Shown piece by piece: positions 1 through 25,566 of a stretch of DNA of 41,010 nt. A program made the translations under genes and the position numbers. Each line of letters starts with the position of its first letter. The stretch's first letter is position 1. The notes beneath the pieces are model-generated. The model worked only from the letters and a program-made list of their open reading frames with translations, ran no database searches and had not been told where the DNA came from. This DNA comes from Clostridia bacterium (GTDB taxonomy: Bacteria > Bacillota > Clostridia > Christensenellales > CAG-917), in NCBI GenBank assembly GCA_045643985.1, contig JAZRGC010000087.1, positions 1-41,010 on the forward strand. Reading direction: 5' to 3'.

Positions 1-262
1 GATAGTCCTCTTTTGTGTCAGGGGTGATGATCTCAACGCCATTGACTGCCCCGTTGAGAGATTTGACAACTTCTGTGATTGTCTTAAGATATTTGTCGTC
101 AATTGTACGTTTTGCAGACATTGTAAGTGCAACAAGGACAAAAGTGTCTTCCACAAAGCAAAGTGGTTCGAGTTTTTCAACCCAAACCTCATAACTTATG
201 GCTTGCATAATTTTTGACAATTCATTTTTGGCGTCTGCCCAAAATTCTTCTTTTCCAATCAT
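1..262 (-). CDS. dnaA: DnaA chromosomal replication initiator, N-terminal fragment (continues beyond left edge)
   Basis: My own minus-strand translation from the ATG at 262 gives MIGKEEFWADAKNELSKIMQAISYEVWVEKLEPLCFVEDTFVLVALTMSAKRTIDDKYLKTITEVVKSLNGAVNGVEIITPDTKEDY. This fits the DnaA domain I pattern (compare B. subtilis [31 protein letters not shown]...). A perfect DnaA box lies just upstream. The ORF is absent from the supplied track because it is open at the window edge. Confidence 0.75.
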   Translation of the reverse strand, partial: MIGKEEFWADAKNELSKIMQAISYEVWVEKLEPLCFVEDTFVLVALTMSAKRTIDDKYLKTITEVVKSLNGAVNGVEIITPDTKEDY

Positions 263-271
263 AGTAGTGAG

Positions 272-300
272 ATTATAACTTATCCACATTTTTAAATCAA
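272..300 (-). promoter_or_regulatory. Putative dnaA promoter with an embedded perfect DnaA box
   Basis: The minus strand reads TTGATT (300-295), 17 nt, TATAAT (277-272). The spacer contains a perfect DnaA box (plus-strand TTATCCACA, 280-288). Only 9 nt separate the -10 hexamer from the dnaA ATG, and no Shine-Dalgarno is visible. Confidence 0.5.
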
Positions 301-436
301 TGTTTTTTGCCACCGAATTACAAAAAAACTATATGTTGTGTCAATAATCATATGCTTTGCATATTGTGACGTTTCATGAAACATTTTGTGGAAAAATCAT
401 GTATCGCAAAGCGATATGATATGAAATCAAAGATTT

Positions 437-883
437 CGTGATATTTCGCTTGCGCTCAGTGAAAGAATGCTTTGCCTTCGTGATAGACACGTAGTGTCGT
501 TATGGTTGAAAAAATTCGCACTCGCTCATTCGTTGGGTTCTCATACAAGCACTTTGTTGTTACGAAGTTACCAACGCGTAAGGAGTGAGCGACGGAATAG
601 CGATTTTTAATCGCGCCGCCACTCATTGCGAGAAAGCGAATACTGAGCACCAGACAAAAGTACGCCAGTCGCTGGTGGTCCACTCAAAATTCACCAAGCG
701 ACAAGTGGCATAATGAGTGGTATATCCTTAATGTGCGCGCGCTGTAAGGAACGAAGTGACGGAATAGCGTATTGCTACGGCACAGCCGTCAATCGCGTCG
801 AGTTGCCCCTTTGCGAGAGCAAATGAGGGGAAACACGTGAGGAAGGGGTGGTTATGCGCTTGATATGTTCGCACTCAGTAATG
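437..883. repeat. Copy 1 of an interspersed ~0.4-kb non-coding element (core inverted relative to copy 2)
   Basis: 437-464 is identical to 31247-31274 (CGTGATATTTCGCTTGCGCTCAGTGAAA). 471-875 aligns as the reverse complement of 31298-31614. The 82-nt block 661-742 differs from 31377-31458 at 2 positions by manual alignment. No ORF is conserved between the copies. Confidence 0.8.
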
Positions 884-950
884 TTTTCAAGGAAGGTGTT
901 TTCACTTCCCTTTTTAGCAATGCACAAAAACGAGAATTTTGGATGAAGAA

Positions 951-1010
951 CAAGAAAAGAAAAAGCCCACGGATAGGAGCGTACTTTTTTGTACGTGACT
1001 ATTCGTGGAC
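951..1010 (-). terminator. Putative rho-independent terminator after dnaN
   Basis: Minus-strand hairpin GTCCACG...CGTAC-AAAAAA-GTACG...CGTGGGC (1010-965), followed by TTTTTCTTTTCTT. Confidence 0.45.
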
Positions 1011-1048
1011 TTGAACTTGACGTAGTTATTCGCCGAAAGGCGAAGTTT

Positions 1049-2149
1049 TTAGCCAATGACACGGAGAGGAAGAATAAGATACAACCAACTATCTTGCTCT
1101 CCCTTGATGATGCCGGGGGCTGTTGATGATGTAAAGTTGAGAGTGATGAATGGATCTTGGATGGCTTTCATACATTCGCTGATATACTTGCTGTTGAAGC
1201 CGATGATGAGATCTTTTCCTTTAAGACCGATGGTGACTTTTTCGTTGATTTCACCTTCTTCACTCTTTGCATTGAGTGAGATTGTGTCTTCCTTGATTTC
1301 CATCTTCACATATGCTTTCTTTTCGGAGCGATTGATGAGCGAAACTCTTTCGATACTGTTTTCAAATTGTTTCTTGTCAATGGTCACTTCTGTTGAGAAA
1401 ACGTTGGGGATGATCTTTTCGTAGTTGATGTAGTCTTCTGCAATGAGTCTTGACACCATCTTTGTGTGGAAAAGGTCGATCATGATATAACTCTTGTCAA
1501 TGTAGATTGTGAGAGTTTCGTTTTCATCATCAAGGAGTGCACTGAGTTCATTCATACTCTTTGCAGGCACAACGATTTTGTCGATGATGCCATTGTTTTG
1601 GATGGGCATCTTTGAAAGTGCAAGACGATATCCGTCTGATGCAACGCCTTCAAGTTCGGTTTCTTTTATGTTGAGGCAAATGCCACGGAGTGAAGGTCTT
1701 GCTTCATCCATTGCAACGTTAAATTTGACCTTGCCAATGAGTTCCTTCAAATCCTTTTTGAGGATGACAAATGAACTTTCCTTTGCAACTTCCTTGAACA
1801 CAGGATATTCATCTGCGCTGAAACAATTGATGTGCACTTCACTGTCAAGATATCTCACTGCAAGTTTGCCACCGGCTGAGCCATCAAGTTCGATTTGTTC
1901 ATCGCCGATACGTTTTGCATAGTCAGCAAAAAGTTTGCCGGGGACAACCACTTCGCCTTCCATAAGAACTTCTGCATTGACTTTCTTTTCGATTGCAAGT
2001 TCAAGGTCTGTTGCGAAGATTGTGACAACATCGCCATATGCGCTGAGTTTGACACATTCAAGGATGGGATTGCTTCTCTTTATAGGCAATGCTCTGACAA
2101 CTTTTTGAAGTGCATCGCCGAGTTCGTTTCCGTTCAAAATAACTTTCAT
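1049..2149 (-). CDS. dnaN: DNA polymerase III beta sliding clamp
   Basis: 366-aa ORF of typical clamp length with three-domain layout. The C-terminal ...LYLILPLRVIG resembles the conserved clamp C-terminus. Confidence 0.95.
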   Translation of the reverse strand: MKVILNGNELGDALQKVVRALPIKRSNPILECVKLSAYGDVVTIFATDLELAIEKKVNAEVLMEGEVVVPGKLFADYAKRIGDEQIELDGSAGGKLAVRYLDSEVHINCFSADEYPVFKEVAKESSFVILKKDLKELIGKVKFNVAMDEARPSLRGICLNIKETELEGVASDGYRLALSKMPIQNNGIIDKIVVPAKSMNELSALLDDENETLTIYIDKSYIMIDLFHTKMVSRLIAEDYINYEKIIPNVFSTEVTIDKKQFENSIERVSLINRSEKKAYVKMEIKEDTISLNAKSEEGEINEKVTIGLKGKDLIIGFNSKYISECMKAIQDPFITLNFTSSTAPGIIKGEQDSWLYLILPLRVIG

Positions 2150-2160
2150 TTTTTCGCCTA

Positions 2161-2388
2161 TTAGAATTTAATTTTTTATTTTTAATTATTATACCATAAA
2201 TAAGCAATGTTGACAAGTGGAAAAGTCAACAAATACCCCAAAACAAGACTTTTTTTTTCATCAAAAACCCCATTAAATAGCCTAAAAATAGCCAATAAAA
2301 CAATGTGGAAAATGTTGACAACTTTTGTTGACAACCCACAAATTATCCCCATTTTGAAAAAACTTATCCCCACACCTCCTGTGGACAA
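2161..2388. promoter_or_regulatory. AT-rich tract, DnaA-box-like cluster and TGTTGACAA repeats in the divergent dnaN-parB intergenic region
   Basis: 2161-2205 is AT-rich. One-mismatch DnaA boxes are TGTGGAAAA 2304-2312, TTATCCCCA 2343-2351, TTATCCCCA 2364-2372 and TGTGGACAA 2380-2388. TGTTGACAA-type repeats lie at 2208-2216, 2225-2233 (inverted), 2313-2322 and 2326-2335. parS half-sites are GTGAAACA 2438-2445 and GTGAAACC 2451-2458. Confidence 0.5.
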
Positions 2389-2527
2389 GACAAAATCATT
2401 GATTTTCTTTTTACATTTTCGGTAAAAAATAAAAAATGTGAAACAAAAGCGTGAAACCTATTGCCCAAGAAGAAATTTTGTGCTATTTTATAAATATAAA
2501 AGAATTTTTGCGTGCAGGAGATAGATT

Positions 2528-3403
2528 ATGGCAAAAGAAACAGCAAAACTCAATGCCCTTTACACTGACAACGAAGAAAACGTCAAGGTTGACCTTGCTG
2601 GTGTAAATGCAATTGATGTTGACATCACTCTCATCGACAGAAACCCCGACCAACCAAGAAAGGTTTTCAACGAAGAAGCACTCCGTGAAATGTCCAATTC
2701 TATTGCAACATACGGCGTTCTTCAACCCCTTCTCGTCACTGAAAACAATGGCAGATATCTCATCATCGCCGGCGAAAGACGTTTTAGAGCCGCATATATG
2801 GCAGGGCTCAAACGTGTGCCTGTCATCATAAGAGAGCTCACCAATCAACAAATCCAAGAAATCGCCCTTATTGAAAACTTGCACCGTGAAGATCTCAATG
2901 CAATCGAAGCAGCAGAAGGCATGAGAGAACTTATGGAAAACCATGGGCTCACACAAGAAGCCGTGGCAACACGTATTGGCAAATCACGTCCATACGTCAC
3001 CAACACACTCCGTCTTTTGCAACTCCCCAAGGAAGTCACCGATCTTGTCAAGGAAGGACATCTCTCCCCCGGTCATGCAAGAGCACTCATTTCAATCGAC
3101 AACAAGGACTATCTTGTCCAACTTGCCAACCAAGCAGTTGCAAGCAGACTCTCTGTCCGTGAACTTGAAACAAAAGTGCGCTTGTACTTTACAAGAAAGT
3201 CAATCCCCACAGGACCAAGAAAGCAACCATTGCCCATCGAACTCAAAGAAATGGTCAGCGATATGAAGCGTGTCTTTGCAACCAAAGTTAGAATTGCAGG
3301 CAATGATACAAAAGGCAGAATTTATATCGACTACTTCAACAAAGACGATCTTGACAGAATCCACGAAATCGTCCAAAAACTTAAATACGACGAAAAACTC
3401 TAA
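2528..3403 (+). CDS. parB: ParB/Spo0J-family chromosome partitioning protein (no adjacent parA)
   Basis: 291 aa with the ParB box LIIAGERRFRAA, a helix-turn-helix region (LTQEAVATRIGKSRPYVTNTLRLL) and an AGGAG Shine-Dalgarno 8 nt upstream. Confidence 0.9.
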   Translation: MAKETAKLNALYTDNEENVKVDLAGVNAIDVDITLIDRNPDQPRKVFNEEALREMSNSIATYGVLQPLLVTENNGRYLIIAGERRFRAAYMAGLKRVPVIIRELTNQQIQEIALIENLHREDLNAIEAAEGMRELMENHGLTQEAVATRIGKSRPYVTNTLRLLQLPKEVTDLVKEGHLSPGHARALISIDNKDYLVQLANQAVASRLSVRELETKVRLYFTRKSIPTGPRKQPLPIELKEMVSDMKRVFATKVRIAGNDTKGRIYIDYFNKDDLDRIHEIVQKLKYDEKL

Positions 3404-3531: not shown

Positions 3532-4230
3532 TTACAATGGTCTTTTTTTGATTTGACCATATTGTCTTGGATATTGTTTTGGGGTTGGTGCAACCTTTTC
3601 AAACACCAATATTGAACGTCTATCTCCATTTGGCAAATTGAATGAAAACGTGTTTTTTAACACCATATTGAGTGTTTTAACTGCCGTTTGTGACATTTCA
3701 ATCTCGCTTTCATCTGTCTTGTATGCTATCATCAAGCCTCCAACTTTGATGAGGGGGGAGCATATTTCAAGAAGAATGGGGAGTGCTGACACTGCCCTTG
3801 CTGTGACCACGTCAAACGTGCCAAACAAATCCTTCATTTCCTCTGCTCTGCCCACTACGGTTTTGAGATTTTTGACGCCAAGGAAACGTGCTGTGCCACC
3901 AACAAAATTCATCTTTTTTGCCGTGCTGTCAAGGGCTGTCACATCAACGTCTTTTCTTGATGCAGCAATGGGGAATGACGGAAATCCACCACCACTGCCC
4001 ACATCGATGAGTTTTGCGCCTTCTGGGATAAATCCAACCCCTGCAAGCGAATCGATGAAATGTTTGACAACAAACTCGTCCTTGCCTGTGATTGCAGTGA
4101 GATTAAACTCCTTGTTGGCTTCTACAACGGCATCGTAGTAGGCTTCAAGAGTGTCAACACTATCTTCATCAAGAGAAAGGTTGAAAAGGTTTTGTGCGCT
4201 TTCAGTCAGCAAAATTCTGTTGATTGACAT
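3532..4230 (-). CDS. rsmG: 16S rRNA (guanine527-N7)-methyltransferase RsmG/GidB
   Basis: 232 aa with SAM-binding motif LIDVGSGGGFPSFPIA and a typical RsmG N-terminal region (FNLTAI...HFIDSL). Confidence 0.9.
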   Translation of the reverse strand: MSINRILLTESAQNLFNLSLDEDSVDTLEAYYDAVVEANKEFNLTAITGKDEFVVKHFIDSLAGVGFIPEGAKLIDVGSGGGFPSFPIAASRKDVDVTALDSTAKKMNFVGGTARFLGVKNLKTVVGRAEEMKDLFGTFDVVTARAVSALPILLEICSPLIKVGGLMIAYKTDESEIEMSQTAVKTLNMVLKNTFSFNLPNGDRRSILVFEKVAPTPKQYPRQYGQIKKRPL

Positions 4231-4414
4231 ATTTTCCTCGTTTGGTTTTTGTTACAACTATAATAGCACAAATTTCAACACTTGCAACACACTTTGGACA
4301 AATTCTTTCCTTATTCTCCATATATTCATTTTTTAAATTGATGAAAAACATATCACATTAATTCACTGCTTGCAAAAAACGACACAATCGTGTAAAATAT
4401 TTTCGGAGGCAATT

Positions 4415-5107
4415 ATGAAAATAGGCATCATAACTGCAATGGCAGACGAAACAACACCCTTGTATCAAAAGATGGGCAAGGCAACAGGCGAAATCAAGGT
4501 GGCAGGTGTCACTGTTTTCAAGTACGATATTGACGGCAATAAGATCTTTCTCGTACGCTCAGGCGTTGGCGAGATACGTGCCGCAATGACATTCCAACTT
4601 CTTGTTGACAAATTCGACGTTGACGCAGTGCTCAACTTTGGCTTTGTCGGCTCACTTGACAATCGCTTTGACGTAGGCGATCTTGTCCTTGCCGAAAAGG
4701 TTGTCCACTATCAATTTGACACAAGCGCAATTGACAACGTTCCTGCCGGTCAATATGACGGCAACGATAGCATCTATTTCAACACCGACAAACAACTTAT
4801 GGACAAAGTTCAAAATCAACTTGACACCAAACTGCCTCAAGTTGTTGTGGCATCCGGAGATAAGTTTGTTGCATCAAAGGAAGACAAAAACTATCTTCGC
4901 ACTCTTGGCGCAGAAATTTGTGAAATGGAATGTGCAGGTCTTGTCATCGCCTCAGTGCGAAACAATGTGCCATTGCTTTCAATCAAGGTCATATCCGACA
5001 AGGCAGATGAAAGTGCCGATGTTTCCTTTGCAGAAGTTGTAAAAAAGGGATTGACACGATATGAGCAAATCTTCCCTTCCGTGCTCAAAGCCGTCTGCAA
5101 CAACTGA
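4415..5107 (+). CDS. mtnN: 5'-methylthioadenosine/S-adenosylhomocysteine nucleosidase
   Basis: The start is moved to the ATG at 4415 (MKIGIITAMADE...) with a GGAGG Shine-Dalgarno 6 nt upstream. Pfs/MtnN motifs are GIITAM..E, SGVGEIRAA and EMECAG. Confidence 0.85.
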   Translation: MKIGIITAMADETTPLYQKMGKATGEIKVAGVTVFKYDIDGNKIFLVRSGVGEIRAAMTFQLLVDKFDVDAVLNFGFVGSLDNRFDVGDLVLAEKVVHYQFDTSAIDNVPAGQYDGNDSIYFNTDKQLMDKVQNQLDTKLPQVVVASGDKFVASKEDKNYLRTLGAEICEMECAGLVIASVRNNVPLLSIKVISDKADESADVSFAEVVKKGLTRYEQIFPSVLKAVCNN

Positions 5108-5231
5108 TCAAAACAAATAAATCAAGCCAACAGGCATATTTGAAACCAACCAAATCTATCCTAGCCAAAGAAATTCAACCACAAACAGGTAAAAATAGGC
5201 AAGGATAAGTATAATAACATAAAGGAAAATT

Positions 5232-5260
5232 CATAACTATATACTTTGTATATAGTTATG
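5232..5260. promoter_or_regulatory. Perfect 13+13-bp inverted repeat immediately upstream of luxS
   Basis: CATAACTATATAC-TTT-GTATATAGTTATG, with arms exactly complementary. It ends 10 nt before the luxS ATG. Confidence 0.6.
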
Positions 5261-5269
5261 CAGTCAAAA

Positions 5270-5698
5270 ATGGAAAGGATCACCTCATTTTGCATCGACC
5301 ACAATATTCTCACCGAAGGCATATATCTCAACCGTGTAGATAAAGACGTATTCACCTATGATCTTCGCTTCAAAGCACCCAACAAAGGGGATTATTTGCA
5401 TACTGCAAGCATGCACACAATCGAACATTTGTTTGCAACAGTAGTGAGAAACAGTGATTTCAAGGACCAAGTTGTCTATTTTGGACCTATGGGATGTCGC
5501 ACAGGCTTCTATTTGCTCCTTTTTGATGCACCTGACGTGAACAAAGTGAAGGAAATGGTCATCGGTTGCCTTGAAAAATGCCTGCAACTCGACACAATCC
5601 CTGGCTCAAAGAAGATTGAATGTGGCAATTATCGCTCTCACAACCTTAAAAATGCCAAGGAAGAAATCGAAAAATATCTATCCATCCTAAAAGCCTAA
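5270..5698 (+). CDS. luxS: S-ribosylhomocysteine lyase (AI-2 synthase) LuxS
   Basis: MERITSFCIDHN... aligns with B. subtilis LuxS MPSVESFELDHN.... The metal-binding HTIEH motif and GCRTG are present. The start is chosen by that alignment; in-frame ATG 5258 and TTG 5246 are alternatives. Confidence 0.88.
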   Translation: MERITSFCIDHNILTEGIYLNRVDKDVFTYDLRFKAPNKGDYLHTASMHTIEHLFATVVRNSDFKDQVVYFGPMGCRTGFYLLLFDAPDVNKVKEMVIGCLEKCLQLDTIPGSKKIECGNYRSHNLKNAKEEIEKYLSILKA

Positions 5699-5859
5699 AA
5701 TATAATAAAAATCGGCTAAAATAGCCAAAAAACATAAAAAAACAAGGCAAATCAAGCCAAACAAGCGACAATCTATAAAAGCGCAAACCAACAAAAACAA
5801 ACCAACATAAGCGAAAAAAAAACAGCATCCAATTAAAAACAAACCAAAACCAAATTACC

Positions 5860-5888
5860 AAGTCAGGCACGAAGCTTGACTTTTTTAT
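5860..5888 (+). terminator. Rho-independent terminator 165 nt downstream of the luxS stop
   Basis: AAGTCAGG (5860-5867), CACGAA, GCTTGACTT (5874-5881), followed by TTTTTAT. Confidence 0.55.
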
Positions 5889-6326
5889 ATCCCAAAAACA
5901 ACCAAAATATAATAAAAACACCCTAAAAACAGTGGTTTATTATGATTTTCTATAATATTTTCATTGATTTTTCTATATTTCCCCATTTTTCAAACAATAG
6001 AAAAATTTCAAATTCCTGTCAAAACCAATTCCCTGAAAGACGATACTTTACTCATCAAATCCAAAATTAAAACAACAGAAAAACCATATCCTTGACATAA
6101 CAGCCAACAATTCCTTCAACCTGCAAGCAGCAGGCATGGTTGGTGCTGCCGAACCAAATCTACCCCAACTTCATCAAAACCCCTAGCATTGCACTTATCA
6201 TCTCATCCACATCCAACCCTTTGTCGCAATAATGAAGTTATGGCAATAAAAAACGGTAATAAAACTGCATAAATCACTGTCAATGTCAAAGTTTTTCTAT
6301 GATTCGCGAAACAAAAAATATAGAAA

Positions 6327-6342
6327 TGTTTCACGTAAAACA
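6327..6342. promoter_or_regulatory. parS site, 1 mismatch to the palindromic consensus
   Basis: TGTTTCACGTAAAACA versus TGTTTCACGTGAAACA. Confidence 0.6.
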
Positions 6343-7589
6343 TTACCCTATTATTTATAATAATCGGCAAATATAAATTGGTAGTTTCCTGCTCAAATGA
6401 TCGTTTTATATCGTTTGTGCCGAAAGGGATAAACTAAATCGCTCGCCAAGAAATAGGACGGTTGCACGGTGTGTTTGTTGACTATCAAACATGTATAGTG
6501 CTTTGATTGATTGTTGGTTGGGGTATTTTGATGCTTGTGTTTGTATTTGTGCTTGCCGAATTTCCCAAAACTACTTGCCTGTTGTTTGCAGTATGTCTAG
6601 GTGTGTTCATTGCTCCGTTTTGTTCTTTGCAAAAACAACAGAAAACTAAAAATTTCATAGAAACGATTTTTATCAAAAATTTCAATTTCTGTCTTTTTCA
6701 AGATTGACAGCTCAACATCAATCATCACTCCTGCTTTTACCCCTGAACGTTTGGTTGCAATTTACACAAAATCAAACGCTGTCATTTTAATACAGAACAA
6801 CTGCATTATGACTGCAATCTACCTAAAACATGTGCCAACGTGTGCCATAAACTCCTGCTTGTTTTACTCTCAAATTCATTGCAAAAACTAATGAAATCAT
6901 CCTTTTTGAATGTGCTACGGCACGAGTCAAATAGACAAACAAACATGGCGCAAGCATGCACAACCACAGCAGGCATACATACGCATGCATTATACACATG
7001 TAATCGCACATATATTGCGCGCTATAGCGCTTACGAGTAGCGTGAGTGTGTTGGCATGTTATGGGTGCAAATATGCGCAACTGAAAACCGATTGGATAAA
7101 TAAAAACCCGAGAAAAAGATTTTAGGGCGCAAACAAGAGTGTAAAACGAAATAAATAATGCGCTAAAAAGGCGTAAGACGCAGGAAAAATCCAAAGATGA
7201 ATAAGCGGGTGAAAAACAGTCTAAAACGCAGTAAAACGGCTCAAAATCGCTCAAAACACCATATCAACCAATATTTAAGGGGATGAAAATGCAAAACTCG
7301 ATCTAAAACAACCCTAAAACAGTCAAAAACCAATCTAAAACAAACAAAAAGAATGTGGGGTTCTGGGTATATGTGGGCAATGGAGTGCTTAGGCGGTGGA
7401 ATTAGTGTGCAAATCAAGCAGACAATAAGCGAAAAAAGAGAAATAAGGCGAGAAAAAACAATCCAAAAAGGGCAAAATATGGGCAAAAATACGGAAGAAA
7501 CGGTGGTGTAAACCATAAGTGATGAAAATCAGGACGAAAGAAGCCGAAATACAAGGGTGAATATGGGCGAAAAGTAGTCAAAAAACATA

Positions 7590-7605
7590 TGTTTCACGTG
7601 GAACA
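7590..7605. promoter_or_regulatory. parS site, exact match to B. subtilis parS
   Basis: TGTTTCACGTGGAACA is the reverse complement of TGTTCCACGTGAAACA (Spo0J/ParB binding site, consensus TGTTNCACGTGAAACA). Confidence 0.85.
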
Positions 7606-7622
7606 ATGAGAGAATGAGTGTG

Positions 7623-7638
7623 TGTTTCATGTGAAACC
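7623..7638. promoter_or_regulatory. parS-like site, 2 mismatches
   Basis: TGTTTCATGTGAAACC, starting 18 nt after the exact site ends. Confidence 0.45.
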
Positions 7639-7996
7639 AAAAACGGTCAAAATGCCCTAAAAATGCAGAAAAATAGGGGATTTTTAGTGATTTTTCGGTG
7701 AAAAATAGGTGGCAAAAATAATTTTTCAGTCTTTTCACATCTAAATTTAGACGCTGAAAAAATTGGTTTTTCATCATTGAAATTTTGAGCCTGTTTGTTT
7801 CGCAAATTTATAATAAAATGTATTTGTTTCACGGCTTTTTGTGATTTTTTGGAATATGGAATGTTTTCAGTGTGCTTTCTCCATGTAAAAAATGACGTGT
7901 TTTTGGTGGTTTTTTATAGATTTTTGGCCGAATACTGGATTTTTTATTGAAAAATATTGATTTTTTTATCAAATTCAAACAATTTTGCTCCTTTCC

Positions 7997-8140
7997 CCAT
8001 TGAAAATTTGCCGTTTTTTCTGTGTGAAACCTAATTTTTTCTGTAAAAATGGGCATAAATTTTATTTTTTGGCACAAAATTTATTTTTTACTTCTTCCAG
8101 CAAATCTCGCCAAACCCCTTCTTTTACCATTGAAAATTTG
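7997..8140. repeat. Two exact copies of CCATTGAAAATTTG 130 bp apart, each followed by a parS half-site
   Basis: CCATTGAAAATTTG occurs at 7997-8010 and 8127-8140, with a related CATTGAAATTTTG at 7775-7787. Each is followed within 11-16 nt by T-rich sequence and then GTGAAACC (8024-8031) or TGTTTCACG (8156-8164). Confidence 0.6.
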
Positions 8141-8155
8141 GTCGATTTTTGTCGA

Positions 8156-8171
8156 TGTTTCACGTGGTGAA
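8156..8171. promoter_or_regulatory. Degenerate parS-like site (one intact half-site)
   Basis: TGTTTCACGTGGTGAA. The left half and centre are intact and the right half has diverged. Confidence 0.3.
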
Positions 8172-8782
8172 AGTGCCAAAAATGGCAAAAAATTGGCTCG
8201 AAAAACTAGTTTAACTATCTATGATAGTTACTTTTTTCAATACATAGGAAAGAGAAAAGGCAAAGTTGAGTGAAATGAAACAAAAATAAGGTTGATTTTG
8301 ACTGTTCTGGATGGGTTTTGATTGTGAAACATTTGTAAAACTATGTCAAAATATGCTTTAAATGGTGGTAGTGTTGAAGAAAACTGAGAAAATTGACAAA
8401 AAATGAAGGGTTTTCCACTTTTTTATGGGTTTTATTGCTGAGTTGTAGGGTTTGTTGGATTGAAATTTTGGATTTGATTGTGTGTTTTTGTCGTGGTGGG
8501 TGGTATAAATGGCAAAAATTGTGTGCAGTGGGGTATGGTGGGATGTAAAAGAGTGAAAATTTGATAATTTTTTTTTTATCGTGACTTTGTGCGATTTTCT
8601 GCGATTTTAATGATTTTGAATGACTTATAGGGTTTGTTTGGTGCATATTGATGTATTTGATTGTTGCTGTTGGGATAGGACGTCTATGTATTGTTGTTTT
8701 AATCACTAAAAACCAAACTGTGTCTTGAAAATGGAGTGAATTTGTGGTAAAATGTTGTTCAGTAAGACATGGAGAAAAGGTT

Positions 8783-9316
8783 ATGTACGTGTGGATTGGC
8801 ATTGATGTCGATGATCAATATGGCAAAATCAAGGAAATAGCCAAAAAAATCGATGATGAACTATGCTTTAAGCATAGTTGTTTCACTTTGCCAATGCATA
8901 TATCCTTGAAAATATCCTTCAAAATTGACGAAAGTGACTACGAAAAGGTGTCAAAAACCATTTTGGACGTCTTTGAAAAGATAAAACCCTTTGAAATCGC
9001 CGTAAAAGGCATTCAAGACGAAGGGAACATCTGTTGGATAAGAATGCAGGATAACCCCTGTTTAAACGCTTTAAGCACGGAAATAAACCATATTCTTGGG
9101 GAAAAGCATGGTGTGCCCTTGCATGAATACGATTTGGACTTCAAATTTCACACGTCACTATTTTTGGATGATGACCATCAAAAAGTCCACCAAGCATATA
9201 TGAGGGTGAGGGATGTTGCCCTGCCTGAAAAACTCATAGCGCACCGTTTTGTCATAGGCACATCGAAGGACGGGCAACTGGGCACATACAAGGTTGTGTG
9301 CACTGTTGAAAGATGA
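8783..9316 (+). CDS. 2H phosphoesterase superfamily protein (LigT/YjcG-like)
   Basis: The start is moved to the ATG at 8783 (GGAG Shine-Dalgarno at 8771-8774). Two HxS/T motifs (PMHISL and KFHTSL) are spaced as in 2',5' RNA ligase/cyclic phosphodiesterase family proteins. Confidence 0.7.
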   Translation: MYVWIGIDVDDQYGKIKEIAKKIDDELCFKHSCFTLPMHISLKISFKIDESDYEKVSKTILDVFEKIKPFEIAVKGIQDEGNICWIRMQDNPCLNALSTEINHILGEKHGVPLHEYDLDFKFHTSLFLDDDHQKVHQAYMRVRDVALPEKLIAHRFVIGTSKDGQLGTYKVVCTVER

Positions 9317-10090: not shown

Positions 10091-10257
10091 GATGGATAAA
10101 GTAAAGTGAAACAAGGCGATATCCTATAAGGATATGCCGAGAAAAGATGAGTGATATATCGTGTTTTGTGGATAAAATGGTGTGAGAACTTGATTTACAG
10201 CCCCTATTTTGTGGAAAAAATGTAAAAATCGGGTGGAAAACCTATGGTTTATCCACA
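10091..10257. promoter_or_regulatory. DnaA-box cluster upstream of gyrB
   Basis: Perfect boxes are TGTGGATAA 10167-10175 and TTATCCACA 10249-10257. Imperfect boxes are TGTGGAAAA 10210-10218 (1 mismatch), GGTGGAAAA 10232-10240 and GATGGATAA 10091-10099 (2 mismatches each). A parS half-site GTGAAACA lies at 10106-10113. Confidence 0.65.
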
Positions 10258-10275
10258 AAAAAATCAAAAAAATGC

Positions 10276-10304
10276 TTGCATTTATATAAGTTTATAGTTA
10301 TAAT
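10276..10304 (+). promoter_or_regulatory. Putative gyrB promoter inside the AT-rich tract
   Basis: TTGCAT (10276-10281), 17 nt, TATAAT (10299-10304). The surrounding 10258-10346 is very AT-rich. Confidence 0.5.
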
Positions 10305-10352
10305 AAAATATATTTATTATAATGTAAATAAATTAACTAACTGCTTATATAA

Positions 10353-12275
<1,923 letters not shown>

Positions 12276-12286
12276 TGAGGTGAACT

Positions 12287-14872
12287 ATGGCAATCAAAAT
12301 TAATGATGTAAAGAATACTGAATATGTTGAACATTTGAATGATAGCAAGATAGTCAATCTTGAAGTTCAACAAGAACTGAAAAAGTCATTCATCAGTTAT
12401 GCAATGGCAGTCAACGTGTCACGTGCTATCCCCGATGTCCGTGATGGTTTGAAGCCTGTTCACCGTAGAATCCTTTATGCTATGAACGAACTTGGCCTTA
12501 CACCCGACAAGCCTTACAGAAAGAGTGCTATGGTCGTTGGTGAAGTGCTTGGTAAATACCATCCTCACGGCGACAGTTCAGTTTATGATGCAATGGTACG
12601 TCTTGCACAAGACTTCTCAATTAGATGTCCCCTTGTTGAAGGCCACGGAAACTTCGGCTCAGTTGACGGCGACCCTGCTGCTGCATATCGTTATACCGAA
12701 GCAAGACTCAGCAAAGTTGCTCTTGAAATGATAAGAGATATCGACAAAAAGACTGTCGATCTCTATCCCAACTTTGACGACACACGTGAACAACCTGTTG
12801 TCCTTCCTTCAAGATTCCCCAACCTTCTCGTCAATGGTTCAGACGGTATCGCAGTTGGTATGGCAACATCAATCCCTCCCCACAACCTTGGCGAGGTTAT
12901 TGATGCAACAGTTGCACTCATTCAAAACCCTGAACTTACTGTTGATGACCTTATGGAATATGTTCCTGCTCCTGACTATCCCACAGGTGCACTTATCCTT
13001 GGCAGAGCAGCAATCAAGCAAGCATATCGCACAGGTAAAGGCGCAGCAGTGCTCCGTGCAAAGACTGAAATTGAAGAACTCCCCAACGGAAAGAGCAGAA
13101 TCATCATTACAGAAATTCCTTATCAAGTAAACAAGGCAAGACTCATTGAAAATATTGCTGATCAAGTCAAAGATAAGAAGATTGAAGGCATTTCAGACAT
13201 CAGCGAAGAAACAGACCGTCATGGTATGCGCATTGTTGTTGAAACAAAGAAGGATTACAATGCACAAGTTGTCCTGAACACCTTGTTCAAACAAACACAA
13301 CTTCAAGTCAACAACTCAATGATTCTTCTTGCACTTGTTGATGGTGTTCCAAAGATTCTCAACCTCAAAGAAATCCTTGAAAACTACATTGCACACCAAG
13401 AAGACGTCATCACACGTCGCACCAAGTTTGACCTTGAAAAAGCACAAGAAAGAGCACATATCCTTGAAGGTCTTGCAGTGGCACTTGCCAACATCGATGA
13501 AGTTGTGGAACTCCTTAAAAAGAGCCCCGACAGACAAGGCGCAATTGCCAATTTAACAGTACGTTTTGCTCTTGATGAAATCCAGGCCGTGTCCATTCTT
13601 GAAATGCGCTTGCAACGTCTTACAGGGCTTGAAGTGGAGAAAATCAAGGAAGAACTTGAACAAAAGCACGCAGAAATCGCAGAATACAATCGCATTTTGG
13701 CATCACACGAAGCAATTGACCAAATTATCGTTGATGAAATGCTTGAAATCAAACAAAGATTTGCTTCACCCAGACTTTCAGAACTCAGTTATGACTACTC
13801 TGAACTTGACATCGGTGACCTTATCGAACAAGAAGACATCGTTGTCAGCATGACACATGGTGGATATATCAAACGTCAAGCAGTCAGCGAATATCACTCA
13901 CAACATCGTGGTGGTGTTGGCATCACAGGCCACAAGGCAAAAGAAGATGACTTTGTTGAAAAACTCTTCATTGCACATACACACCAAGACTTGATGTTCT
14001 TCACAAACCTTGGAAAGGCATTTGTCTTGAAGGGTTGGGAAATCCCCGAAGCATCAAAGACTGCACGTGGCAGAGCAATGGTCAACCTTCTCCAACTTGT
14101 TCCCGGCGAAAAGGTGCAAGCAATCCTTCGTTTGCCCGAGGAAAAGGAAGGCTACAACCTTATTCTTGCAACCAAACAAGGTCTTATCAAACGTACTGCA
14201 TTGACCGAATTTGAATCAGTCAAGCGCAACGGTAAGATTGCAATCAAGTTCAACGAAGATGACGAACTCATCGAAGCAGTGCTCACAACAGGCAATGATG
14301 AACTTATCATGGCATCATCAGAAGGCTACTGCATCCGTTTCAATGAAAACACAGTCCGTCTTGTTGGCAGAACAGCAATGGGCGTCAAATCAATGCGACT
14401 TGCCGAAGGTGCATACATGGTTGACCTTGCAGTTGTCCACGAAAATAGCGAAATCTTGACCGTCACATCTCACGGCTATGGCAAGAGAAGTTCTGTTGAA
14501 GAATATCCTCTCCAAGGCAGAGCAGGCAAGGGCGTCAAGGCAGGCGTGTTCAACGATAAGACAGGCGACCTTGTCAGCCTCAAAGTCCTTGATGACAACC
14601 TTGACGTCATGATGATCACAGACAACGGAATTGTCATCCGTGTCCATGCAGAAGAAATCAGCCGTATCGGCAGAAATACACAGGGTGTCCGCATTATGCG
14701 CCTTAAAAATGACAAGGCAAACGTTGTGTCAGTGGCACTTGCTCCCTACGAAGAAGAAGCCCCCGAAGTCGAGTATGACGAAGACGGCAATCCCATCGTA
14801 GAAGAAGTGGTTGACGTGGTTGAAGCACCTGCAACAGCAGAAGGCGAAACAAACACTGAAATTGCAGAATAA
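12287..14872 (+). CDS. gyrA: DNA gyrase subunit A
   Basis: 861 aa with the QRDR-type motif [20 protein letters not shown], the catalytic [11 protein letters not shown] region and a C-terminal beta-pinwheel with an acidic tail. Confidence 0.97.
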
Positions 14873-14945: not shown

Positions 14946-16628
14946 ATGAGCAAAGTTTGGTACAATGAAATGTGTGTTTATCAAGTGTGGCCACGTTCCT
15001 TCAAGGACGGCAACGGAGATGGTATTGGCGATCTCAAAGGCATACTTGAAAAACTTGACTATATCAAAAGTTTGGGTGTTGATGCCATTTGGTTTTCCCC
15101 ATTGTATGCATCACCACAAAAGGACTATGGTTATGATATAGCCGACTACTACAACATCAATCCAGAGTATGGCACCAACGAAGATTTCAAGGCAGTTCTT
15201 GATGGAGCACATCAACGTGGATTGAGAGTTATAATGGACCTTGTCATCAACCATACAAGTGACCAACACGAATGGTTCAAAAAATCCTGCGCAGGAGATC
15301 CACAATATAAGGATTATTATATTTGGCGTCCGGGCAAGGGTAAGGACGGAAAGAAATTCCCCAACAACTGGATGGCAACATTCCCCGGCGATGGTTGGAA
15401 GTGGAATGAAGAAAGGGGCGAATATTATCTGCATTTGTTTGCAGTTGAGCAACCCGATCTCAATCACGACAACCCTGCAGTGAGAGAAGAAGTCAAAAAG
15501 ATAATGAGATATTGGCTTGATATGGGTGTTGATGGTTTTAGAGAAGACGTCATCACTTATATATCCAAAAAGGAAGGACTTCCCAACGGATTCCCATTGC
15601 CTGCTGCACGTGGTATGGAACATTATTCTCCCGGCCCTAACCTTAAAAAGTACTTGCAAGAGTACAGAAAAGTGGTCAAGGAGTATGATGACAGGCTTCA
15701 ACTTGGCGAAGCACCTATGATGACTCCAAAAAATGCACTGAAATACATTGATGGGGAAGACAGAGTCCTTGATATGATGTTCGGTTTCCAACATATGGAA
15801 GCAGATTGCTTTATGATAAGTTGGCTCAGGCTTCCATTTAGTCTTAGAAAACTGAAAAAAATCTACAATAATTGGCAGACAAAGTTGTATGGCAGGGGTA
15901 TCAATGCCAACTACATTGAAAATCACGACCAACCTCGCAACATTTCAAGATATGGCAGTGAAAAGTATCGCTATGAGAGTGGCAAGGCACTTTGCACAAT
16001 GTACACTTTCCTCAGTGGCGCACAATTTGTCTATCAAGGTCAAGAAATCGGCATGACCAACCTTGACTATGAAAAATGGGAAGATTTTGCAGATGTCAGC
16101 ACCTTTTCAACCAAGAGCCTTCTTGAAAAATTGAAGATTTTCAGTGATAAGAAGATTATGAAGATGGCAAAGTATGCTGCTCGTGACAATGCTCGCACTC
16201 CTGTTCAATGGGACGGCACACAAAATGCAGGCTTCACCACAGGCACACCTTGGTTTACGGTCAACCCCAACTATGTGGATGTCAATGTGGAAGCACAGGA
16301 AAACGACCCCAATTCACAACTGAATTACTATCGCAAGGCAATTGCCCTGAGAAAGGAATATAAAGATGCAGCCATCTATGGTCAATTCAACCTTCATCTC
16401 AAAGGTCACAAGCAACTTTTCGTCTATGACAAAATTGGCGAAGACGGCACAAAACTCACCGTCATCATCAATCTGTCAGCAAAGACCTTATCATCAAAGA
16501 AAGCACTCAAATACATTTGCCCCAAATCCACTGAAATCCTTTCAAACTATGAAGGGGAAATTGGCGATAAACTCCGCCCTTACGAAGCGAGGGTGTTTGC
16601 TTGCAACTATAAAAACTGTGCTATTTAG
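14946..16628 (+). CDS. GH13 alpha-glucosidase / oligo-1,6-glucosidase-like
   Basis: 560 aa with an N-terminus typical of GH13_31 enzymes (VYQVWPRSFKDGNGDGIGDLKGI..LDYIKSLGVDAIWFSP) and conserved regions DLVINHTS, GFREDV and ENHDQPR. Confidence 0.9.
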   Translation: MSKVWYNEMCVYQVWPRSFKDGNGDGIGDLKGILEKLDYIKSLGVDAIWFSPLYASPQKDYGYDIADYYNINPEYGTNEDFKAVLDGAHQRGLRVIMDLVINHTSDQHEWFKKSCAGDPQYKDYYIWRPGKGKDGKKFPNNWMATFPGDGWKWNEERGEYYLHLFAVEQPDLNHDNPAVREEVKKIMRYWLDMGVDGFREDVITYISKKEGLPNGFPLPAARGMEHYSPGPNLKKYLQEYRKVVKEYDDRLQLGEAPMMTPKNALKYIDGEDRVLDMMFGFQHMEADCFMISWLRLPFSLRKLKKIYNNWQTKLYGRGINANYIENHDQPRNISRYGSEKYRYESGKALCTMYTFLSGAQFVYQGQEIGMTNLDYEKWEDFADVSTFSTKSLLEKLKIFSDKKIMKMAKYAARDNARTPVQWDGTQNAGFTTGTPWFTVNPNYVDVNVEAQENDPNSQLNYYRKAIALRKEYKDAAIYGQFNLHLKGHKQLFVYDKIGEDGTKLTVIINLSAKTLSSKKALKYICPKSTEILSNYEGEIGDKLRPYEARVFACNYKNCAI

Positions 16629-17034
16629 CGAATAACATCGTCAGGCGCTCTCATCTCATCCCTTATGTACGCCAGTACACTGCGGACTGACCTGACAGCA
16701 CCTTTCTTGTTCTTCATCTAAATATCCCAGTTTTTAAGAGTTCTAAAAAATGTTTAGAGCAAGAATAAGTTCAGTGTTTGCTATTTAGCGAACAACTTCA
16801 TTAGTCGTGCTGAAAAATGCAAAATCACAAAAACCATACTTAATAGTGTTTATTTGGTGCGATAAACTGCCGAAATGGTCATTTTAGAAAAATTATTGTA
16901 TTCTTATAATTGGGCGCAATATACAATATTGTAGGCAGGAAAATGTAAGTTGTGACTATATGAATATAGTATATGTGCACAACAAATAATGAGATATAAA
17001 CATATAAAAAAACAAATATAAAGGAGCAAAAATA

Positions 17035-21413: not shown

Positions 21414-21548
21414 ATGAAACAAACTTACCAACCCAAGAAAAGACAAAGAAGCAAAGTCCACGGATTCCGTGAAAGAATGAAGTCAACAAGTGGCAGAAAG
21501 GTCTTGAAGCGCAGACGTGCAAGAGGCAGAAAAGTCCTCAGCGCATAA
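21414..21548 (+). CDS. rpmH: 50S ribosomal protein L34
   Basis: My own translation gives [44 protein letters not shown] (44 aa), with a GGAGG Shine-Dalgarno. It falls below the size cutoff of the supplied ORF track. Confidence 0.95.
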
Positions 21549-21558
21549 GAAGTGAACT

Positions 21559-21891
21559 ATGCAGAAGCAGTATCGACTGAAAAGAAGGTCGGCATTTAGT
21601 TATGTCTATCGAAAAGGGGAAAAATCCTCAAGTAGGCATTTACTGCTTCTTTACACAAAATCACGCAGTGGGATCAAAATCGGCATCTCCGTCTCCAAAA
21701 AAGTAGGCGGGGCTGTCGTGCGAAACAGAGTCAAAAGGCTGATTCGTGAGGCAATCAACAACATTTTCCCCCAAATCAAGGAGGGATACACTTACGTCAT
21801 AGTTGCCAAGTCAACGGCAGGCGAAAGTGATTACTATGCAATATGTGAAGATGTGAAAGCCATCTTTGAAAGAGCAGAAAAGTTATGTTGA
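21559..21891 (+). CDS. rnpA: Ribonuclease P protein component
   Basis: 110 aa and basic, with VSKKVGGAVVRNRVKRLIRE (the RNR motif), immediately after rpmH. Confidence 0.92.
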   Translation: MQKQYRLKRRSAFSYVYRKGEKSSSRHLLLLYTKSRSGIKIGISVSKKVGGAVVRNRVKRLIREAINNIFPQIKEGYTYVIVAKSTAGESDYYAICEDVKAIFERAEKLC

Positions 21892-22130
21892 AGAAGTTAT
21901 GCTTTGGTGCTTTGCACTGGTACAAAGCAACTTTGAGTCCATATATCGGCAGAAACTGCAAATATACGCCAACCTGTTCAATGTACGCCTTTGACGCCAT
22001 CAAAAAACATGGTGTTGTCAAGGGGATTGCAATGGGTACGTGGCGTATTCTTAGATGCAACCCTTTTTCAAAGGGTGGTTTTGACCCTGTCAAAGAAAAC
22101 TATAAAGGAAATGCAAAATGGCTGGTTTAA
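21885..22130 (+). CDS. yidD: Membrane protein insertion efficiency factor YidD
   Basis: 81 aa with the YidD signature WYKATLSPYIGRNCKYTPTCSMYAFDAIKKHG. It overlaps rnpA and yidC. Confidence 0.9.
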   Translation: MLKKLCFGALHWYKATLSPYIGRNCKYTPTCSMYAFDAIKKHGVVKGIAMGTWRILRCNPFSKGGFDPVKENYKGNAKWLV

Positions 22131-23365: not shown

Positions 23366-23373
23366 GAGTAAAT

Positions 23374-25532: not shown

Positions 25533-25566
25533 GTGGACGAAACAACCTTAATTGGAATATAGAAGT

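Follow-up and report, generated by a model that had tools for sequence, protein, structure and literature searches.

Gene content of the island and of its surroundings

The window considered here, i.e., the whole stretch of 41,010 nucleotides (41 kb) of DNA analysed, which comes from an uncultured gut Clostridia bacterium, contains an origin gene neighbourhood in which dnaA, dnaN, parB, rsmG, gyrB, gyrA and the rpmH-to-mnmG block are gathered within 20 kb. Beside these replication-origin genes lies a non-coding island of 3 kb (5699..8782), without assigned strand, flanked by luxS and by a 2'-5' RNA-ligase-like gene, the protein of which gave no record in an exact-sequence look-up. Such an origin-proximal location is that of the chromosomal ParB-parS centromeres. 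The putative end of the luxS transcript consists of a terminator-like hairpin on the plus strand, made of a 9-bp stem followed by TTTTTT (5860..5890), and a promoter-like site of the next gene occurs at the opposite end of the island (8725-8753). The locus was compared with that of 40 species-level relatives, all of them uncultured, Christensenellales-like Clostridia, among which 26 species distributed in four clades (A-D) carry the module described below. Gene-orientation maps established by a crude longest-ORF rule were left out of the comparison, antisense ORFs making them unreliable.

The absence of genes between 5699 and 8782, already claimed by an earlier sequence-only reading of this DNA, was borne out by Pfam, codon scores, ORF comparison and tRNA and Rfam searches. 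No Pfam match was found among the island ORFs, and an NCBIfam search of these ORFs yielded no real gene. The codon log-odds of all 21 island ORFs range from -0.53 to +0.09, vs 0.47 on average in 25 real genes. Clustering of the ORFs across the 26 species gave none conserved in the island, and the minus-strand ORF that covers the core is interrupted by stops in many species. A protein-coding gene or a pseudogene remnant finds no support in the coding scores, in the family searches or in ORFs of the relatives. Similarly, a structured non-coding RNA was rejected: the tRNA/tmRNA search of the island gave none, Rfam gave nothing in the island at gathering thresholds and only chance snoRNA-like matches up to E = 5, and RNAalifold over the core found 0 compensatory pairs, the trivial pairing of the two identical parS palindromes being the only one predicted. 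Plasmid-derived DNA found no support in plasmid records, a blastn search in distant mode vs 72,556 plasmids giving no match. Neither protein nor plasmid similarity points to pseudogenes or mobile DNA in the island.

parS sites, half-sites and accompanying motifs

The 16-bp palindrome TGTTNCACGTGAAACA of the ParB-parS centromeres occurs as an exact copy at 7590..7605 (parS-1, minus-strand reading) and is nearly invariant across the 26 species. A second site, parS-2 (TGTTTCATGTGAAACC, 7623..7638), stands 33 bp after parS-1 and is separated from it by 32 or 33 bp in 26/26 species. Both sites had been recognized from the sequence, and the site scan confirmed them, the neighbour with 2 mismatches. 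An auxiliary parS (TGTTTCACGTAAAACA, 6327..6342) with 1 mismatch is found as the same variant, with the same following flank, in two relatives (L013 and L014), which also keep a degenerate parS with 3 mismatches (TGTTTCACGTGGTGAA, 8156..8171) preceded by TTTTGTCGA. All parS-like sites of the 41-kb window are located inside the island, sites such as the exact copy and those with 1 or 2 mismatches being expected about 0.67 times by chance in the window. In addition, half of the GTTTCAC/GTGAAAC heptamers of the window (7 of 14) occur inside the island (P=3e-5), e.g., the half-site GTTTCAC at 7826..7832, which corresponds to +236 (signed positions are given in bp relative to parS-1), and the half-sites GTGAAAC at 8024..8030 and 8324..8330. 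A half-site occurs between +201 and +250 in 25/26 species and at +172 in the remaining one (L040); in the shared module, half-sites are found at about +205 and +236, after the conserved motifs.

These conserved motifs comprise CAAAAATAATTTTTC, located at 7713-7727, and two CTTTC-type boxes of the repeat family D1, CTTTTCACATCTAAATTT and GTTTTTCATCATTGAAATTTTG, at 7730..7790, the conserved forms of which, CTTTCnCC(A)TGTAAAAT and CTTTCACCCAAATTTTT, are shared by the four clades. The CTTTC/CATTGAAAATTTG repeat recurs at 7872-7894, 7988-8010 and 8118-8140. We know of no protein that binds the CTTTC-type boxes and, to our knowledge, neither these boxes nor the AAAAATAATTTTT motif have a known link to ParB. 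They imply at least one further factor, a point against the centromere proposed below, and the locus flags a conserved motif set still devoid of a known binding protein.

A canonical ParB, the probable ligand of these sites, is encoded on the plus strand at 2528..3403, 4 kb away. It possesses the GERRFRA CTP motif, a HTH and a C-terminal dimerisation domain, matches the Pfam ParB_N, HTH_ParB and ParB_C domains and passes TIGR00180, its score under the Noc model being below the cut-off. Among PDB entries, it is best matched by 7bnk and 6sdk, two structures of ParB/Spo0J CTPases (E about 1e-52), and its closest solved relatives are the chromosomal ParB/Spo0J CTPases. The binding of ParB to the island DNA is a well-supported prediction. 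With regard to the partner protein, no parA/soj gene was found when the ORFs of the 41-kb window were annotated, nor beside parB in the relatives, an observation limited to these sequences that goes against the centromere and leaves a complete ParABS system hypothetical.

A promoter-like sequence TTGAGC-18-TATAAT, with GTTTCGC in the spacer (7797-7803), occurs on the plus strand at 7785..7814 and is recognisable in clade A only, under the form TTGACC/TTGAGC-17/18-TATAAT. Together with the curved DNA located at about -35 to -170 from this site, it is consistent with a module devoted to transcription control, in which a promoter preceded by a curved activating element, perhaps under the control of ParB, would be associated to a bidirectional terminator and to a non-coding or leader transcript. 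A hairpin CC(C/T)ACT-AAAY-AGTGGG, which stands between an A-run and a T-run in clades B-D, shows compensatory or wobble changes in its stem and belongs to an element inverted in clade C, is also in favour of such a module. However, this explanation appears quite unlikely: promoter-like sites are not enriched (17 counted vs 17.1 expected by chance), the promoter is unrecognisable in clades B-D, the hairpin is missing from the clade of the window itself, about 1 kb downstream is devoid of any ORF, and both the Rfam and RNAalifold results mentioned above argue against it as well.

Phased tracts, base composition and predicted curvature

The helical phasing of A- and T-tracts, which the sequence-only reading had noticed, is strong. 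Over 5699-8782, the AA/TT power reaches 34.6 at 10.4 bp, vs 4.7±2.1 in dinucleotide shuffles, 0/300 of which attain 34.6. In sliding 600-bp windows, the median power is 3.8 across the 41 kb, whereas the island culminates at 31.6 (7651-8250). The other intergenic DNA of the window stays far below; away from the island, the power does not exceed the value of about 14 obtained between genes at 30.5-31 kb. Tracts of A4-6 recurring at the helical period above chance, as they do here, are those that characterize intrinsically curved DNA.

The tracts are organized on both sides of a dyad. The left arm (7100..7589) is purine-rich and contains phased A4-6 tracts on the plus strand, with a power of 16-18 at 10.1-10.7 bp; A-runs prevail from -500 to 0 in all species. 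The dyad (7639..7740) consists of four phased A-tracts, an A-to-T switch near 7680 and the motif CAAAAATAATTTTTC, and it also holds the predicted curvature maximum. The right arm (7841..8300), built up from phased T5-7 tracts, takes part in the strongest periodicity of the window. Beyond these arms, the outer left arm (5699..6300) is A/C-rich and G-poor, with a GC skew of -0.4 to -0.53, and is fast-evolving, its identity to relatives being 20-40%; the outer right arm (8300..8782) is G/T-rich and C-poor (5-7% C), with a GC skew of +0.56 to +0.68, and is unalignable between species. The island contains no real tandem repeats, only short local repeats of 9-21 bp. No iteron-like consensus surrounds the A-tracts, the flanks of which lack any specific consensus, and no shared polar motif occurs in the outer arms beyond A/C-rich hexamers.

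The single composition flip formerly described near 7680 holds on average, A-runs prevailing before this point and T-runs after it, but it simplifies a patchy left side, which is successively A/C-rich (5600-6300), T/G-rich (6400-6600) and purine (A/G)-rich (7000-7600). The AT skew changes sign at 7650-7700, whereas the GC skew does so already near 6900.

The predicted curvature of the island averages 11.5 deg/turn, vs 7.2-7.6 outside, and the maximum of the whole window, 28 deg/turn under the wedge model, is located at 7656. These predicted values depend on the wedge parameters used, although a plain AA-wedge model agrees, the enrichment of the island surviving under it. In the right arm, segments of 315 bp are predicted to close on themselves.

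Bacterial origins (oriC) consist of a DnaA-box cluster and an AT-rich unwinding element, often accompanied by bent DNA. The island shares with them its neighbourhood, its AT-rich and predicted curved DNA and a local skew flip. The core could be envisaged as a replication origin, or a part of it, from which forks would diverge at the A-to-T dyad with the outward G+T-rich strands as leading strands. The position of the island within the origin gene cluster, the cumulative GC skew minimum of the window at 7034 (a local minimum over at most 41 kb, such minima being dominated by the tracts), its counterparts within 800 bp of the parS pair in 7/20 loci (local sequence, with the same dominance of tracts), the 1-kb skews mostly negative to the left and positive to the right of the pair, and the AT skew, which changes sign at the pair in each of the four clades, are consistent with this possibility. 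Moreover, clades B-D have DnaA boxes on the right side of the pair, at 0.5-1 kb from it, and in two of these clades (C and D) a parS-like site located 0.5-0.8 kb away is fused to two DnaA boxes, which suggests that the locus is tied to initiation as well as to segregation. An origin in the core is nevertheless unlikely. The DnaA-box clusters (TTATCCACA) of the window, three in number (280-395, 2304-2388 and 10167-10257), all occur outside the island, 2.5-5 kb away, upstream of dnaA, dnaN and gyrB, respectively, which makes an oriC in the island less likely; the island itself contains only two isolated boxes with 1 mismatch (6203 and 6990), which do not form an oriC-type cluster. The clusters upstream of dnaA and dnaN are canonical and stand where gene orientation switches too, and in the region upstream of gyrB (10167-10330), which has also been counted in favour of an origin, 3-4 DnaA boxes precede a very AT-rich run of about 90 bp. 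In addition, it is the phased tracts themselves that generate the local skews, which, at 0.3-0.6, lie far above replication skew, and a fork leaving from 7680 would meet pfs and luxS head-on. The former suggestion that forks diverge at this point is of low probability: the island does belong to the origin neighbourhood and local skews do flip at it; these skews stem from the tracts, and the DnaA-box clusters have an outer location.

Conservation among relatives and the candidate centromere

The same module is found in 26/40 species-level relatives, whose ParB proteins are 69-94% identical. In this module, a distance of 32-33 bp separates the two parS sites, 2-4 phased A-tracts follow, and A-tracts give way to T-tracts at about 95 bp from parS-1; further parS sites are kept on both sides of the pair. 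A predicted curvature peak occurs at +60 to +100 in most species and, at +62 to +99, ranks top or second in 16/26; the species-mean profile has its maximum (18.2 deg/turn) at +50 to +100, vs a background of 7-8 deg/turn. The phase of the AA/TT tracts is locked to parS from -170 to +420, even where the sequence is not conserved, and its conservation reaches R=0.98 at +50 to +100. In 18/26 species, the 600-bp window with the highest periodicity of the whole locus is found at no more than 700 bp from the parS pair. In clade D, the periodicity is weak (power 6-17), so that strong curvature is not indispensable to the parS pair, a point against the centromere explanation.

The sequence-conserved part of the island measures only about 300-700 bp and corresponds to about 7546-8250 in the window, where the sequence-only reading had taken the whole 3.1 kb as one element. 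The core, the parS spacing and the tract phase are kept in these relatives, and the sequence of the outer arms is not. Between strains, the core is 94-96% identical, as are the coding genes, while the arms fall to 42-90%. Fast-evolving as they are, the outer arms still remain non-coding and periodic and, in clade A, the left arm has a negative GC skew throughout.

These unstable arms raise the question whether, apart from its parS sites, the island could consist of neutral or decaying DNA, in which slippage and strand-biased mutation would have given rise to periodicity and skew as side effects. Neither outer arm (5750-7500 and 8250-8780) is alignable between species even at 84-94% ParB identity, a 340-bp segment (6701-7042) is replaced between strains, the arms are of low complexity, A/C- or G/T-rich and without specific motif, and assemblies often break there. 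Against such an origin, which is very unlikely for the island, speak the persistence of 2.5-3 kb of non-coding DNA in every species of clade A, the periodicity that tracks the parS pair in most species with a phase anchored to parS, the far lower periodicity of the other intergenic DNA of the window, and the lack of protein or plasmid similarity suggesting pseudogenes or mobile DNA. Decay, left as an option by the sequence-only reading, is rejected for the core and could at most apply to the fast-evolving outer arms.

Since this layout is shared by 26 related species, the island most likely represents a site of chromosome segregation encoded in DNA shape, and not junk. Judging from its sequence, it is probably the main origin-proximal centromere of the chromosome, in the form of a dedicated, gene-free ParB-loading platform, devoid of any conserved promoter and built on the fixed parS pair. 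Among the three functions first proposed for the island, that of a centromere or ParB/SMC platform is partly supported, and favoured because the parS pair, its spacing, the extra sites, the A-to-T switch, the curvature peak and the tract phase are kept in the 26 species, with ParB encoded 4 kb away.

In such a centromere, the two parS sites, which three helical turns separate, would be occupied by ParB dimers, as would the auxiliary full sites and half-sites; the dimers would then form closed CTP clamps and slide away into the non-coding DNA on either side. Beside the pair, the phased A-tracts switching to T-tracts at the dyad would create a strong static bend and, more widely, a domain of coherent curvature of 0.5-1.5 kb. 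This pre-bent DNA might impose the centromere as the tip of a supercoil loop or of a hairpin, in which the two flanking arms, and the parS sites scattered over them, would come to lie next to each other; with such a geometry, bridging and condensation would proceed at a lower ParB concentration, and the folded DNA could be presented as a substrate for SMC loading. The outer arms would mainly serve as a gene-free spacer, in which ParB clamps are not expected to meet RNA polymerase. We infer the role of the bend in folding the partition complex, as well as the bending in vivo, the supercoil pinning and the SMC loading, from these features of the DNA. Single ParB dimers do not pin plectonemes, and plectonemic DNA lowers the ParB concentration required for condensation (PMC11602141). 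It is possible, if somewhat doubtful, that DNA shape forms an integral and selected part of the centromere, the mirror-symmetric tract hairpin or loop at the parS pair pinning the supercoil tip and setting the geometry of ParB condensation and of SMC arm capture. The static loop might then replace the IHF-type bending proteins, or ParA, used elsewhere, and the CTTTC-type boxes would mark an additional centromere protein.

Origin-proximal chromosomal parS clusters belonging to ParABS systems occur in Bacillus subtilis, Caulobacter crescentus, Corynebacterium glutamicum and Myxococcus xanthus. The present locus resembles them by its 16-bp palindromic TGTTNCACGTGAAACA-type sites, present in several copies within a few kb of oriC and parB, and by the cognate CTP-dependent ParB encoded nearby. 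It differs from them by two sites at a fixed distance of 32-33 bp with conserved non-parS motifs flanking, by a dedicated gene-free island where chromosomal parS sites mostly lie inside genes, by sites embedded in phased A/T-tracts whose phase is locked to parS, and by the lack of an adjacent parA gene. In Pseudomonas aeruginosa, ParB is a nucleoid-associated protein that binds parS half-sites spread genome-wide; GTTTCAC/GTTCCAC heptamers similarly accompany the full sites here, but at conserved positions beside the pair (+201 to +250 and others). The parS of plasmid P1 is a centromere dependent on bent DNA, with IHF. In the parC of plasmid R1, the ParR complex is U-shaped (PMC2241845). As in these plasmid centromeres, multiple binding sites would be combined with a sharp bend, predicted in the present case, that folds the partition complex; unlike their protein-induced bends or iteron arrays, which involve other centromere-binding proteins, the bend predicted here is static, encoded by A-tracts, 0.5-1.5 kb long and chromosomal.

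According to Kim et al. 2018, plectoneme tips are reportedly positioned by intrinsic curvature, and the 10-bp phased A/T tracts of the island, predicted to make a tight loop at a supercoil tip cheaper, recall this pinning; unlike those cases, which are not known to be tied to a centromere or to ParB, the island would associate both. The same likeness in 10-bp phased A/T tracts, and the same difference, apply to the PATCs of C. elegans (bioRxiv 10.64898/2026.08.08.743475). A literature search gave no paper describing parS embedded in phased A-tracts.

If this reading is correct, a natural centromere has been kept across many species with its site spacing, tract phase and bend position fixed relative to parS, and the locus offers a concrete substrate for asking whether DNA shape aids loading, condensation and arm juxtaposition. 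It would also indicate that, in uncultured gut Clostridia, long regions that look 'empty' can act as functional elements of chromosome architecture. As a minor observation, the half-site heptamer GTGAAAC also occurs twice directly upstream of parB, at 2438 and 2451.

Gene content, periodicity and predicted curvature of the island

The stretch from 5699 to 8782, between luxS and a gene for a 2'-5' RNA-ligase-like protein, had been taken from sequence inspection as a gene-free island, and the searches bear this out: none of its open reading frames (ORFs) belongs to a Pfam family, the 21 ORFs of at least 50 aa score -0.53 to +0.09 in codon log-odds against an average of 0.47 for 25 real genes of the window, and no tRNA, tmRNA or Rfam family (the latter even at E up to 5) was found in it. 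A terminator-like hairpin follows luxS at 5860-5882. A protein-coding island was rejected, since the sole ORF "family" shared across the sequence groups of relatives (A-D, the window belonging to group A) coincides with DNA that is conserved and contains stops in many of the species; pseudogene debris, envisaged in case relatives carried intact genes here, is not indicated either. A structured RNA was also discarded, since the only pairing in the RNAalifold output joins one parS palindrome to its identical partner, with 0 compensatory changes, as were plasmid-like DNA (no match in a plasmid sequence search) and a promoter-dense region (17 promoter-like sites, 17.1 expected). A plausible group A promoter occurs at 7785-7814, with GTTTCGC in the spacer and curved DNA upstream, and no promoter of this type is recognisable in groups B-D.

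The helically phased A/T-tracts described in the sequence-only reading are readily recovered by spectral analysis. The AA/TT power over 5699-8782 reaches 34.6 at 10.4 bp, compared with 4.7±2.1 for 300 dinucleotide-preserving shuffles, none of which (0/300) attains this value. In sliding 600-bp windows over the 41 kb, the median power is 3.8 and the island maximum, at 7651-8250, is 31.6, well beyond the ~14 of the top unrelated periodic region (intergenic, 30.5-31 kb); other intergenic DNA of the window is less periodic. Neither a tandem repeat as its source nor an iteron-like consensus flanking the tracts was found. The luxS coding region (5101-5700) is the sole gene of the window with a raised 10.6-bp AA/TT periodicity (power 19).

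According to a wedge-model trajectory, with wedge parameters from the literature, the predicted curvature averages 11.5 deg/turn in the island versus 7.2-7.6 outside, culminates for the entire window at 7656, and would bring 315-bp segments between 7126 and 8300 close to self-closure; a plain AA-wedge model predicts the same enrichment. The strong intrinsic curvature anticipated from the tracts is thus predicted. With respect to composition, the proposed mirror image stands for the A-runs versus T-runs and for the AT skew flip at ~7650-7700; it is otherwise a simplification, since the left half of the island is patchy, 7000-7600 is purine-rich and not A/C-rich, and the GC skew changes sign near 6900. 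The outer arms display an extreme G/C strand skew in group A.

The parS pair and its conserved module

The parS pair reported in the island is composed of parS-1 (7590-7605, minus strand), an exact match to the Bacillus-type consensus TGTTNCACGTGAAACA, and parS-2 (7623-7638), with 2 mismatches; a further site with 1 mismatch occurs at 6327-6342, for a chance expectation of such sites of ~0.67 in the whole window. In addition, 7 of the 14 GTTTCAC/GTGAAAC heptamers of the window lie inside the island (P=3e-5), and composition-matched island shuffles yield 0.35. The ParB encoded 4 kb away is a canonical chromosomal ParB. Besides the GERRFRA CTP motif it possesses an HTH and a C-terminal domain, its best relatives of solved structure are ParB CTPases from Myxococcus and Bacillus, and it scores under the Noc cut-off. 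Two GTGAAAC half-sites at 2438-2457 precede the start codon of parB by ~70-90 bp and could reflect autoregulation by ParB.

Strain-level contigs were collected via exact-protein look-ups, among them L005, which extends across the island. Its flanking genes are 95-99% identical to those of the window and the core 7546-7746 is 94-96% identical, versus 42-90% for the arms; a 340-bp segment (6701-7042) is replaced in this strain comparison. Metagenome assemblies of the species often break in the island (contig ends of L004, L006 and L003 at window ~5800-5870 and ~7573), which fits low complexity or strain variation, including the replaced segment.

A ParB-anchored scan with one genome per species gave 40 loci, 26 of which possess a common module, with ParB sequences 69-94% identical and falling into groups A-D. 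The module comprises parS-1 (ATATGTTTCACGTGGAACAAT), parS-2 (GTTTCAyGTGrAAC) after a 16-17-bp spacer, the start-to-start distance being 32 or 33 bp in 26/26, two to four helically phased A-tracts, which give way to T-tracts ~95 bp from parS-1, the motif GAAAAATAATTTTTC, two CTTTC-type boxes, a half-site-like element (TGTTTCGC/TGTTACAC), a GTTTCAC half-site at +201 to +250 from parS-1 (+172 in locus L040), and additional parS sites on both sides of the pair (-264 to -545 or near -1260; +484 to +787). Tract polarity is shared by all 26 species, A-runs of at least 4 prevailing from -500 to +100 and T-runs of at least 4 from +100 to +500, and the AT skew flips at the pair in 4/4 groups. Over loci of 7-41 kb, the 600-bp window of peak periodicity is at most 700 bp away from the pair in 18/26 species, its power depending on the group (27-35 in A, 12-24 in B and C, weak in D). 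A predicted curvature peak at +62 to +99 ranks first or second in 16/26 species, and the species-mean prediction is 18.2 deg/turn at +50 to +100 versus a background of 7-8.

The AA/TT phase relative to parS is kept from -170 to +420 (Rayleigh R 0.56-0.98, the nominal p-values overstating significance because the species are related), including +260 to +420, where the groups share no conserved sequence. Conservation of the island among relatives holds for this phase and for ~7546-8250, and fails for the outer sequence, which is not alignable even within group A; yet in those group A loci that cover the luxS-to-ligase gap, its length stays at 2.5-3.0 kb. More distant Clostridia (ParB ~50% identical) have an exact parS near parB, but no such pair and no periodic flanks.

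In groups B-D, a hairpin of the type CC(C/T)ACT-AAAY-AGTGGG occupies the dyad between the A-run and the T-run (+63 to +90 from parS-1; L019-L051, L021-L050). Its stem changes are wobble or compensatory, it is inverted in group C, and it looks like a bidirectional terminator. The window's own group is devoid of it and shows a looser A5/T5 dyad instead.

A putative ParB platform

It is established that ParB, having nucleated at parS, forms a closed CTP clamp able to slide and bridge, and that it loads SMC. The anatomy and conservation of the island give good support to its interpretation as a ParB platform, the gene-free arms of which would offer ParB clamps a collision-free runway. Together with this ParB biology, the literature on plectonemes, condensation and curvature underlies a proposed role of shape. 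Single ParB dimers do not pin plectonemes, and condensation sets in at lower ParB concentrations when the DNA is plectonemic (PMC11602141); plectoneme formation is thought to be cheaper with local curvature (PMC11602141; tip geometry as used in 10.64898/2026.08.08.743475). It is proposed that the static bend beside the pair holds the tip of a supercoil, or a hairpin, in place at the centromere; the auxiliary sites and both arms would thereby come to lie side by side, which would favour condensation and the loading of SMC. No link to ParB is known for the CTTTC-type boxes or the AAAAATAATTTTT motif, which imply at least one further factor that reads them. Precedents exist for parS clusters close to oriC, for half-site binding, for bent centromeres on plasmids and for supercoil positioning directed by curvature; literature searches yielded no chromosomal centromere that combines a gene-free island with a fixed parS pair set in A/T-tracts phased to parS.

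The replication-origin neighbourhood

The window surrounds the replication-origin genes of an uncultured Clostridia bacterium; its nearest public records are MAGs from the gut of ruminants, humans, chickens and rabbits, filed under Clostridia, Christensenella sp., Christensenellales or Candidatus Limadaptatus. The N-terminal part of dnaA (minus strand; the gene is cut by the window start and intact in strain contigs L003-L006) is followed by dnaN (1049-2149, minus), parB (2528-3403, plus), rsmG (3532-4230, minus), a pfs-like PNP_UDP_1-family nucleosidase gene (4370-5107, plus), luxS (5246-5698, plus), the island, the ligase-like gene (8783-9316, plus), an 88-aa ORF, gyrB (10368-12275, plus) and gyrA (12287-14872, plus). 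The block rpmH-rnpA-yidD-yidC-jag-mnmE-mnmG (21414-27411, all plus) lies ~14 kb right of the island, separate from rsmG and parB, so that the region is rearranged with respect to the usual Bacillota order. No parA/soj occurs anywhere in the 41-kb window.

Such surroundings, and local cumulative skew minima often found near the pair, would suit a replication origin, or part of one, in the island core. This is nevertheless improbable: the local skews arise from the tracts themselves and, at 0.3-0.6, far exceed replication skew, the window's island lacks a DnaA-box cluster whereas three occur outside it (280 and 387, upstream of dnaA; 2304-2388, upstream of dnaN; 10167-10257, upstream of gyrB and next to a very AT-rich stretch), and genes left of dnaN lie on the minus strand in strain contigs, which puts the change in gene orientation closer to the spacer between dnaN and parB. 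Besides its putative role as a ParB platform, the locus may still be functionally tied to initiation, judging from the shorter islands of groups B-D, with DnaA boxes just 0.5-1 kb right of the pair, and from a parS-like site fused to two head-to-tail DnaA boxes in groups C and D (CGTTTCACGnAAAACA-AAtTTTCCAC-TTATCAACA; +484 to +790 in L021, L026, L027, L044, L030, L031, L037, L035, L038, L039 and L050), preceded in L021, L026, L027 and L044 by a small hairpin, CCGCTAAAyAGTGCGG.

The region upstream of gyrB (10167-10330), with 3-4 DnaA boxes (two exact) and then ~90 bp of very AT-rich DNA, resembles an oriC or a promoter region under DnaA control. Read along the minus strand, dnaN precedes dnaA with a ~790-bp spacer (window 1-2528; L003-L006), the reverse of the usual dnaA-dnaN order, and this spacer harbours at 367-384 a 15-16-nt parS-like palindrome minus one central base (ACGTTTCATGAAACAT), flanked by two DnaA boxes. 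In the L003-L006 comparison, recF lies several kb beyond dnaA/dnaN, an RHS-repeat gene intervening in some strains. Two adjacent ORFs, 37061-38551 (496 aa) and 38660-40087 (475 aa), belong to no Pfam family. Some strains (L004 7139-7872, L007, L008) contain a ~550-730-bp insertion between dnaN and parB (window ~2403-2411), encoding a 156-176-aa ORF without Pfam match. A repeated, partly inverted non-coding element of ~120-450 bp, without Rfam match, occurs in several intergenic regions (417-894, 16612-16737, 31250-31620) and recurs at 75-90% identity in other strains, including the dnaA-dnaN spacers of L003-L006; it resembles a small repeat of mobile or structured type.
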